NCBI GenBank assembly: GCA_965112155.1
Contig: OZ218104.1
Reading direction: 5' to 3' (one strand)
DNA: 64,000 nucleotides
DNA from: Podarcis liolepis
Taxonomy: Eukaryota
Part shown: positions 19,401 to 22,400 of the stretch, piece by piece
Layout of the letters: the number at the start of each line of letters is the position of its first letter
How positions within the stretch are numbered: the stretch's first letter is position 1
Translations under genes and position numbers: made by a program
The notes under the pieces: generated by a model
Told to the model about the DNA's origin: nothing
The model's database searches: none
The model's input: only the letters and a program-made list of their open reading frames with translations

Positions 19401-22400
19401 CGTGATTTGCTTCTGCTGGTTATCTTTTTATTTCATCCCTGTTGACATTTAATCTTACTTTTAATTAAGATTTATGATGGTTCTGTATTTATATACTGTT
19501 TATTGTGCTTTTAAAACATGCGTCATGCCCTGCCCTGAGACCCTTGTGTGAACCGCTAGGGCAGTGTTTCCCAACCGGTGTTCCGCGGCACACTACTGTG
19601 CCGTGAGACATTGGCTGGTGTGCCGTGGGAGGGAGGCGGGCGAGTCGGGCGGTGAGAGGTGGCGGCGGCGAGGATCCGCGTCGAGCCGGGGGCGGCTCCG
19701 CGGTGGTGGTGCCGAGCGGCGGGGCAGTGCGTGCAAAAGGGAGGAGCGCGAGACAGCGGAGGAGGAGGAGGCCGGCATGTCCGGGCAGCAGCAGCAACAA
19801 CAGCAGCAGCAACTCCCGGCGACGGCTCCTCAAGCCCCGCCGCCGCCCCCTCCTCCGCCCGCCACCACCACAACAGCCGCCGTCGCCTCAGTTGCCGCCG
19901 TCCCTCAGTCCCTCGCTCTGCTGCCTCCTCCCACCCCCAAAGCTTGGAGGTTCCCCGGCAAGGGGGAGGGGAAAAACTTTCACTTTCGTGCGTCCCTCCC
20001 GGCGTGACGCTGCGCGCTGATGTCACGGGGCGGGGCTTTAATGGTGGTGTGCCGCGAGATTTTTTTTCAGTAAACAGGTGTGCCGTTGCCCAAAAAAGTT
20101 TGGGAAACACTGCGCTAGGGTGTTATAAATATGTGAAATAAAAAAAGTGGAATGAAAGTAGTAGAAGTTTAGGCAGCATTTGTTCGTAGTGACGAAGTTG
20201 GCTTTTGTTCATTTTTACTAGTAACAACAGAAATCATCACAGAAACACAGAATTGAAAGATGACTCTGGGTGTATTCTGTAAAACCAAATGACACTTAAT
20301 GTACTTCACAACAATCAGGTGCCTTTTTGGCTATTGTTAATATATTAGAATCCACCCCAAATATTGTTTTTACAGTGTAGGGTGGGATATTAGATACAAT
20401 TAAATAAACCAATAAACATAATGAATACCTTCCCGGCCCTGCCTGCTGAGCTCAATGACAGATTTGTCCAAAGAAAGGTAGCGATGAATATGCGCAGCAG
20501 CCTGTTCATAATCTTCATTCCTCAGGGCTGTCTGGACTCCATCCATGCAGAACTTCAAGTCCAGAATGTCATCTGCTCTCTGGATGGCTTGATAGAGGCG
20601 ATTCTGCCAAGAAGGGCCCCAATTAATTCCCCTCCAAAATTGGCAAGGCAGGAGCAGAAGAGGCTAATGGAGACCACAACAGCTGAGGAAGCTACATATG
20701 ATGATTTCCCAGCTATGGGTGCTCCGCGCCAATCCCACCAGCCAGATTGCTGCTCTGTGAGCATCCATTCAAGATACGATAAGCAGGGCCTCCAAGATCC
20801 AGCACAGCAAGGAAGAGTTCTCCAGGATGCAACTAGCCTGGCCATTCATCTCATCAAGGCTGGGCCAAAGCAGCACACGCTGCATCAGGATGTCTTTGAA
20901 AAACATTTGGAAACTTAAGCTGAAGTTTTGACTGGGGCAAGCTTTTTTGCAGCTTGCTCTTGCTATATCAGGTGTCATGGCTTCGAATGACTTCTTCTAA
21001 AGTCCTAAACAGCTTGGAGGCAGACCATCTCTTCCCACAAGGATCCTGCACATCTATACAGGGGAGGCTCTGCTCCCAGCACCGAAAGGGTGCCTGGTGG
21101 GAATGTGGGGGACAACCATTGTCATGGAACTGTATGTGAGGCATTCCATGCCCTGGGAAATGAGATGGGCTCCCTTCCTAACAGTTTTCAGATGCCAAGC
21201 AATGACATTTTTGTCCCAGCATGCCTACAATGCACCCTTTCCTTGCCTATCCCTGTGGTAACTAATATATTTGAATACCTTAGACCTTGGCCTGTTGTCT
21301 CTTCGCTCTTTCCCCTTTCTGTGATCATAGCCCACTTTAACTCCAGGTTAAAAGATCCCAACATGTCTCTTGATTATGCATATGAAGGGATATGCCCATG
21401 TAAATGGAGATTGTGTGGGAACAGTCGTATTTGAAACAAGTGCGTCTGAAACATTTCTGCAACCCTTGACAACTCAAATAAAGACCACATCTCAAAAACA
21501 GATGAGTAAAATGGGACAGCCTTGTATTCTTATCTTTTATTTAATTTCTATACTGCCCTACTTATGAAGCTCACACGGTGGTTCACAATATAAAAACACA
21601 AAAATACATACCATGATAACAAACCAAAACAATACTCCCACAATATTATTATTACTGTACAGGTATGAAAGGACCAGTGATGGGGGAGGGAAAGAAAAAT
21701 TCCTCCTTAAATGTCGACAATCACACACAGTCATGTCATGACAACCCAATCGGACTCAAAGCTCAGTATGGCTTTATCTAGTTACCTTGGCAAGGTCGAG
21801 CTGTCGGACTTTGCTGCTGACATTCTCAGCCAGATTGCAGGTGAAAGTGATCATTCCAGCTAGCTGCTTCGCATCGCCTTCAATGAGCTGCAGGTTAGGA
21901 CTGAAAACAAAGAAACAAGGGAAAGTAGGATGTCTATTTTGGAAAAAAACAGCATCCACAAGGGTAATGACAATCGGCCTGACCTTCATCTGGCTCTATT
22001 TGTTCCGGCAACGATGCAGCACTGCACATAACGTACTACGACTGCTACTCACCCCATGCGATGAAGGGTAGCCATCTTGCTCTCCATGGAGCTCTGCTGT
22101 TCCAGAAGCATCTCCAACTCTTCTTCCACGGCTTTCTGAAAAACAGAAATATAATGCTGCAGGCATAATCAATGCCCAATTTGCAGCTTGTCCCTTTCAA
22201 GATCAATGGTAACGGCATGACTTAAGAACTCAATGTGACATCAGATCAGAGATCCAAGCAAAAGGTTGCTAATAGGGGTTGGGTACATCACATGCTCTAT
22301 TCTGCATCAGTTTATCCTTTCCATGAAAGAGGGTATGCTTCCTCTCAAACAACAATGGAGTCCATTACTAGATAAATGGGATATTCATCACTATCATATC

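Follow-up and report, generated by a model that had tools for sequence, protein, structure and literature searches.

Where does a GC-rich sequence resembling the beginning of a gene come from when it is found between the ends of a DNA transposon, and what, if anything, does it do there? This question is raised by a 551-bp hAT element (19562-20112) in a stretch of 64,000 nucleotides from the lizard Podarcis liolepis (contig OZ218104.1 of assembly GCA_965112155.1), to which we refer at its full length as the window. The left end of the element (19562-19623, plus strand) opens with a perfect 13-bp terminal inverted repeat (TIR; CAGTGTTTCCCAA, 19562-19574), whose exact complement closes the right end (20039-20112, plus strand) at 20100-20112; subterminal GTGTGCC repeats are present at both ends. 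Two copies of CGCTAGGG (19554-19561 and 20113-20120), a target-site duplication (TSD) of the nnnTAnnn type, flank the element. Three flanking exons match the Pfam models COG4_N and COG4_m above cut-off, four COG4 coding exons lie upstream of the insertion on the minus strand, and a splice from 20428 to 19259 spans the insertion site in six reads of our RNA data, which derive from organism G, a relative and not necessarily this species. Hence, the element resides in intron 4 of COG4 (19260-20427, minus strand), with its cargo antisense to that gene. Coordinates, Pfam matches and spliced reads thus agree with the first-pass annotation of this DNA, which had reported a hAT element with TIRs and a perfect 8-bp TSD in this very intron. 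Its remark that the interior is unlike the surrounding intron was equally accurate, as positions 19630-19940 have a GC content of 74% and a CpG observed/expected ratio of 0.87, against 43-45% and 0.19-0.22 in the flanks.

An empty COG4 site with a single CGCTAGGG, for which the annotation had proposed to look, is present in all three contig runs inspected (X1, X3 and X10). Since the flanks in run X1 are without differences and the site is nevertheless empty, the species is probably polymorphic for the insertion, with the proviso that X1 may be the source sample itself and that contigs drop rare variants. Elsewhere in the window, a further CpG-rich repeat occupies positions 1223-1965; it does not belong to the hAT family, its inverted ends are long, and it has tandem units inside. 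The interval 23700-25600 contains the COG4 promoter island and, some 1.2 kb from it, another island that resembles a head-to-head gene start.

The element is one of many. All 40 full-length genome matches that were scored are 97-100% identical to it, and an individual, perfect TSD flanks 29 of 30 full-length copies that were fetched; near-identical copies with independent TSDs argue against a chance assembly. The reading of the element as a Pack-type hAT that is young and has captured the 5' part of a host gene is borne out. The first 20 nt of the left end have 2,519 exact matches in the genome and none for the control, a count that leaves out variant ends and takes in some inner ends. From these we sampled 70 of the first 71 position-ordered matches on contig C1. 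Perfect 8-bp TSDs flank 68 of the 70, with T at position 4 in 66/67 and A at position 5 in 65/67, and the sampled elements fall into about 20 structural groups. Every one of the 70 interiors contains a CpG-island-like 200-mer, in part because pieces are shared between them, and 1,223 first-look candidates resulted from a search with the interior of the window element. All structural tests carried out identify this element as a Pack-hAT, a multicopy Pack-TIR: host DNA lies between TIRs, the parent copies are unlinked, and the TSDs are distinct. The 8-bp nnnTAnnn TSD, the short TIRs, the subterminal repeats and a transposase-coding partner (see below) fit hAT elements of the Buster/Charlie type. 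At two loci (L027 and L046), neighboring family elements were found as pairs with one common 8-bp TSD between them.

What lies between the TIRs can be traced to host genes. The central piece (19752-19894, plus strand) comprises 25 nt of 5' UTR, the ATG, nine glutamine codons and a proline run, and it stems from exon 1 of RANBP9. Searches at the DNA level, whether with the full element or its interior, were dominated by copies and the donor was not visible in them, and a profile search with PF10607 returned other CTLH genes, RANBP9 not being among them. The start of the peptide is RANBP9-like, and the locus was found by synteny, through a NOL7-family match (PF08157) together with a LisH match. 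It lies at 60.209 Mb of contig C8 in genome G000 (L058:8996-8755), where element nucleotides 191-278 and 273-333 align, and the translation of the donor exon matches RANBP9 in the PDB with E=1.9e-36. The captured segment starts 25 nt 5' of the ATG and stops about 240 nt short of the splice donor; it is thus devoid of promoter and splice donor. In the window copy, 87 nt of RANBP9 sequence are deleted in frame between two GCCCCG words (microhomology at 19834-19839), and other subfamilies have lost different parts of this cargo. Eight sampled copies retain these 87 nt, and the undeleted cargo of three copies checked has 231-233 matches and 3-4 mismatches to the donor over about 236 aligned bases. 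The existence of such longer sister subfamilies implies that capture came first and deletion later. The family end closest to RANBP9 exon 1 lies 21 kb away. An 878-bp sister element with different cargo sits inside a RANBP9 intron (L056:6934-7811), with 620 first-look candidates of its own; donors for its cargo did not turn up.

Two further host islands contribute to the interior. Downstream of the left end and a 35-nt GC-rich linker common to most family members (19624-19658, plus strand), for which no donor was found, positions 19659-19754 (minus strand) correspond to the 5' CpG island of a TCF20-like gene in antisense orientation to that gene. The TIR-free donor (L306/L339) is located at G000:C11:32.265 Mb and matches element nucleotides 98-193 at 97% and 87% identity; relative to it, the element has an 81-nt internal deletion at about position 19716. 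A PHD-like domain is encoded downstream of the C11 island, and this gene is presumably TCF20. A second linker of 16 nt (19895-19910, plus strand), common to other subfamilies and likewise without a donor found, precedes a piece (19911-20031, plus strand) from the CpG island upstream of a DP-family, TFDP1-like gene. The TIR-free donor of this piece (L282/L292; G000:C4:28.67 Mb) is the source of element nucleotides 350-470; compared with it, the element lacks 165 nt, lost at a microhomology of GGC. The neighbor gene has E2F_TDP matches and is presumably TFDP1, judging by synteny; a CRE-like motif in the C4 piece, TGACGTCA, is mutated to TGATGTCA in the window copy.

Inside the window element, pieces of three host CpG islands, each free of TIRs and each on a different contig, are thus combined into a mosaic. 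The annotation had predicted a TIR-free match at the 5' end of a gene in addition to several TIR-flanked copies, and both were found. Its proposal that the whole first exon of one host gene had been duplicated holds for the existence of a TIR-free host donor, RANBP9, but the exon is partial, the final 240 nt or so before the splice donor being absent, and RANBP9 is one of three donors and accounts for only 39 of the 76 codons of the open reading frame. In the sample, cargo from RANBP9 is present in 31, from the TCF20-like gene in 30 and from the C4 island in 60 of the 70 elements, which, if C1 is typical, translates into about 1,100 RANBP9-bearing copies (95% interval 840-1,410). With a probability of roughly 0.85, we regard the window element as a non-autonomous hAT with a three-donor mosaic, present in some 1,100 copies and likely mobilized by the transposase of intact partners. 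The case that the annotation had set against its own reading, namely that the interior might have arisen by expansion of simple repeats or might correspond to the inside of an autonomous hAT, could draw on the low complexity of the region and on one cargo piece that also occurs in transposase-bearing elements. We consider it next to impossible, as the donor matches, 50-240 nt each, are unique and free of TIRs, and as a comparison over 2.8 kb on the ORF side of a transposase-bearing element finds just the 74-nt right end, at 90.5% identity, in common with the window copy.

Could the cargo encode something? As described earlier, the ATG at 19777 opens a frame of 76 codons that ends with TGA at 20005-20007 (plus strand), and a functional polyQ/polyP micro-protein would be compatible with the preserved RANBP9 start context, kept in 29 of 70 sampled elements, and with a frame that is open in 28 of the 30 top copies. 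At a divergence of only about 0.3%, open frames are expected even without selection; about half of the frame, beyond the 39 RANBP9 codons, is linker and non-coding cargo that happens to be in frame, and the deletions differ between subfamilies. The 76-residue peptide had no homologue at E<=10 among 625 candidate longer proteins and no match in Pfam. We infer that the frame is most probably a chimeric by-product and think a functional micro-protein, a new gene in the manner of Ssk-FB4, very improbable. Nine glutamine codons are present in 24 of 27 readable copies, compared with eleven in host RANBP9; an expansion of the CAG repeat was consequently rejected, as the run in the copies is shorter than that of the host and does not grow.

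A portable regulatory function has more in its favor, yet we judge it unlikely. According to this reading, the copies would be active units that serve as mobile promoters or that give rise to small RNAs acting in trans to damp donors such as RANBP9 and TCF20. A gene start present in about 1,100 near-identical copies would suit such a role, and so would reads from the element on both strands in one RNA run; bat Helitrons with captured promoters are described as contributing to transcripts (PMC4224331). The same RNA run speaks against it: 81% of the reads over the window element continue into unlike sequence, no start peak is listed, and the interior depth of 6-36 per strand, pooled over copies and host genes, amounts to 1-3 times that of one COG4 exon. 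The RNA check that the annotation had suggested over the insert hence returned reads on both strands but no start peak in this run. Sequence decay points in the same direction. Among the 30 top copies, transitions at CpG sites reach 1.06%, against 0.08% at other C/G sites, an excess of about tenfold, and similar ratios were obtained for most other groups of copies, whereas the island of host RANBP9 itself keeps a CpG observed/expected ratio of 0.80-1.08. Such an excess implies that the copies are probably methylated; their CpG richness is then a mark of youth, and the island will not last. The annotation's idea of a CpG island and a CAG repeat spreading around the genome therefore stands with respect to the many copies, but the CpGs decay and the glutamine run, shorter than the host's, does not expand. 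We infer that the window copy carries its cargo as a passenger, methylated and decaying.

Other members of the family carry further gene starts. The element at L146:1470-3005 (minus strand) contains 1.15 kb upstream of PPAT, the whole of PPAT exon 1 and its splice donor, fused to the RANBP9 start; this cargo was aligned to the host PPAT locus. Exon 1 of UBE2G1 (L131, L219-L241), of TP53RK (L235-L245) and of an FH-like gene (L163) characterizes further subfamilies, with a GT donor directly after each exon. The UBE2G1 piece agrees in 15/15 residues and occurs in 17 of 30 loci of one set, and the TP53RK piece matches with E=1.7e-24; UBE2G1 and TP53RK, like the CDK5-activator piece considered below, were named by protein match only. 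The exon in L163 had no match in the PDB, and its designation as FH-like is tentative. At a cargo junction in L127 (positions 1501-2412), telomere-like (GTTAGG)n filler was observed, which suggests end healing during capture.

Which enzyme moves these elements? Of 62 matches to PF05699, 50 loci were examined, and family ends were absent from all of these. The partner was found instead through the AT-rich right end of the family. Eight copies have an open transposase frame of 625-626 codons, as found in a search with cargo as the query, which would reach only cargo-bearing copies. Six of them (L298:1780-5983 and L299-L303), 4.2-5.0 kb in length, have ORFs that are 99.5-100% identical and perfect TSDs on six contigs. 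In their left part, these six contain a fragment of CDK5-activator coding sequence (PF03261, E=1.3e-9) and a promoter-like piece rich in GC, as well as an intron with its splice donor. In all eight copies, a splice acceptor derived from the C4 locus lies 178 nt 5' of the transposase ATG and captured GC-rich sequence lies upstream of this acceptor, with donor and intron farther 5' where examined; a short native left end is seen in the deletion derivative L262. Loss of an upstream ATG in the newest transposase subfamily was considered and rejected, as it affects only one of the six copies. Another side observation concerns an intact transposase copy with unmatched TSDs (L255:438-4030), which lies 606 bp from an ATG reading MNIRNAR that probably starts a NAA10-like gene. 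At the C4 donor (L292:8117-9230, minus strand), the TFDP1-upstream island may give rise to a divergent, spliced transcript, with a short exon beginning MAGKEDE and with the acceptor that the transposon has captured.

Intact partners with the same ends would be the likely source of transposase for the cargo-bearing copies, and in the partners themselves the captured acceptor, donor and promoter region likely provide the transposase with its mRNA. If so, promoter-bearing cargo would be favored within the family, a link that we put forward as a proposal. The transposase ORF is transcribed in sense in both bulk runs, with a depth of about 23-82 as compared to at most 2.6 in antisense and coverage that ends at the acceptor, and it is covered in both single-cell runs. 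In two single-cell runs of one study, 11 and 12 reads run from the captured exon into the captured acceptor across a transposon-specific junction; this joint is not among the joints listed in the two bulk runs. The majority of transposase reads, however, enter the acceptor (L255:2496) from an exon that is absent from the loci examined, with 43, 79 and 69 such loose-end reads in three runs, and the captured promoter is accordingly possibly a minor source of transposase. These reads speak for a gene trap, in which host exons splice into the captured acceptor while the captured promoters are inert. The inner 2.5-kb unit of inner TIR, acceptor piece and ORF, found at a target site within a host intron, fits this idea as well. 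The transposon-specific exon-acceptor reads in two runs, and the six newest copies, which bring along their own GC-rich region, donor and intron, weigh against it, and we hold a gene trap as the main source of transposase to be a serious but less probable alternative. As to the wider reading, we put the odds at about even: in a vertebrate hAT that is still active, the native left end of the transposase gene would have been replaced by stolen promoter regions, first exon, intron and splice acceptor of several host genes, and the same process would have given rise to more than 2,500 non-autonomous elements that spread pieces of housekeeping genes, from promoters and first exons, and that segregate in the species. 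This would amount to a radiation of Pack-MULE scale in an amniote.

How host sequence comes to lie between transposon ends may be read from intermediates that survive in this family. In 4 of the 70 sampled elements, a complete 118-bp mini-element is followed by an 8-bp nnnTAnnn site, about 100 bp of flank and RANBP9 promoter-region sequence; this flank corresponds to DNA 4.3 kb upstream of the RANBP9 ATG, where the site is empty today. In eight of nine transposase-bearing loci, a 1.1-kb piece of intron from C5 ends in a target site with an inner left TIR right behind it, and this target site, too, is empty in the host. Both types of composite would be the remains expected if an element inserts beside a gene and, in a later jump, bypasses its near end in favor of a farther one, thereby taking the flank along. 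Template switching during repair of the excision gap may in addition add or swap cargo between elements and unlinked loci. Family TIRs were not found in the 40 kb (C4), 80 kb (C11) and 20 kb (C5) that surround the donors, and one 13-nt TIR match lies 9 kb from PPAT exon 1. The junctions examined, which lie in GC-rich sequence, share 1-6 nt between the joined pieces; template switching would leave unlinked donors joined at such common bases.

A preference of the transposon for inserting at gene starts would offer another source of the cargo bias. TcBuster, which also generates 8-bp nnnTAnnn TSDs, is described as preferring transcription start sites and CpG islands (PMC3499496). In contrast, the flanks of standing lizard copies show no such bias: one of 30 insertion flanks is CpG-rich, compared with 4 of 42 background stretches, so that the standing copies give no sign of a bias for inserting near promoters. 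That insertion bias alone explains the cargo is not supported by these flanks, in which no bias toward CpG islands was seen.

Gene capture by TIR transposons is known; what is new here is the scale, the mosaicism and the presence of cargo in transposase-coding copies. The main text of Tan et al. (2021; PMC8277862) lists four multicopy Pack-TIRs from animal reference genomes, three from frogs and one from alligator, and contains neither the word Anolis nor lizard. Among them, Pack-hAT-N8_XT, with a captured CAPSL 5' UTR and three copies, resembles the lizard family in its hAT ends, which enclose the 5' portion of a gene, and in its distinct TSDs, GC-rich cargo and unlinked donor, with microhomology as a possible further parallel; an estimated 1,100 copies, multi-donor cargo and cargo in transposase-coding copies set the lizard family apart from the cases in that text. 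In Anolis, hobo_AC and hAT-HT3_AC are portrayed as containing extraneous DNA and as recombining between elements, autonomous copies included (Novick et al., 2011; PMC3014272). The ends of hAT-HT3_AC (TIR CAGTGRTTCCCAAA, target NTCTAGAN) are similar to those of our family, but the filler is presented there as genomic DNA with TE fragments, unlike the gene-start cargo found here, and that article uses neither the term host gene nor the word exon. In bats, 54 genes captured by Helitrons, with a preference for their 5' parts, are present in 12,382 copies; these elements are about 36 My old, and their copy numbers are higher in promoter-bearing families (Thomas et al., 2014; PMC4224331). The lizard family shares their high copy number, sequential capture and bias for promoters, 5' UTRs and first exons, but Helitrons are rolling-circle elements, whereas the lizard family, a hAT, moves by cut and paste and is still polymorphic at a divergence of less than about 1%. 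Plant Pack-MULEs and Pack-TYPE elements, Pack-hAT among them, are akin to it in being non-autonomous, in their GC-rich cargo from several genes, their high copy number and their composites from neighboring insertions (PMC8903248; PMC8277862). Vertebrate TIR elements on a Pack-MULE-like scale were not found in the literature searched, which also holds no account of this hAT family; a repeat-library consensus may exist.

Duplication of host sequence by cut-and-paste transposons is regarded as rare in vertebrates, with single copies the usual outcome; the lizard family reaches plant scale. As it is young, with surviving intermediates (undeleted cargo, inner TIRs, empty donor sites) and intact partners, cargo acquisition becomes testable in an amniote: the way in which Pack elements gain their cargo, and its GC-rich 5' bias, can be addressed directly by population genomics and a transposition assay. 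If captured promoter and splice signals drive the transposase, the cargo bias would have a selfish reason. On the practical side, a RANBP9 start that is present some 1,100 times will confound the mapping of reads, the calling of methylation and the annotation of genes in these lizards.

The transposase itself has its best named relatives among ZBED5-like and SCAND3-like proteins with PF14291, and its top relative, from Podarcis muralis, is 98% identical. Putative zinc-finger, DDE and W motifs are present by position; searches of the transposase against Pfam gave zinc-finger matches below cut-off and no match to PF05699, and a search against the PDB gave no match. Its identity amounts to 93% to a protein of Rana (73% coverage), 85% to one of Xenopus, 87% to one of a spider and 82% to one of a tunicate, values that suggest horizontal transfer.
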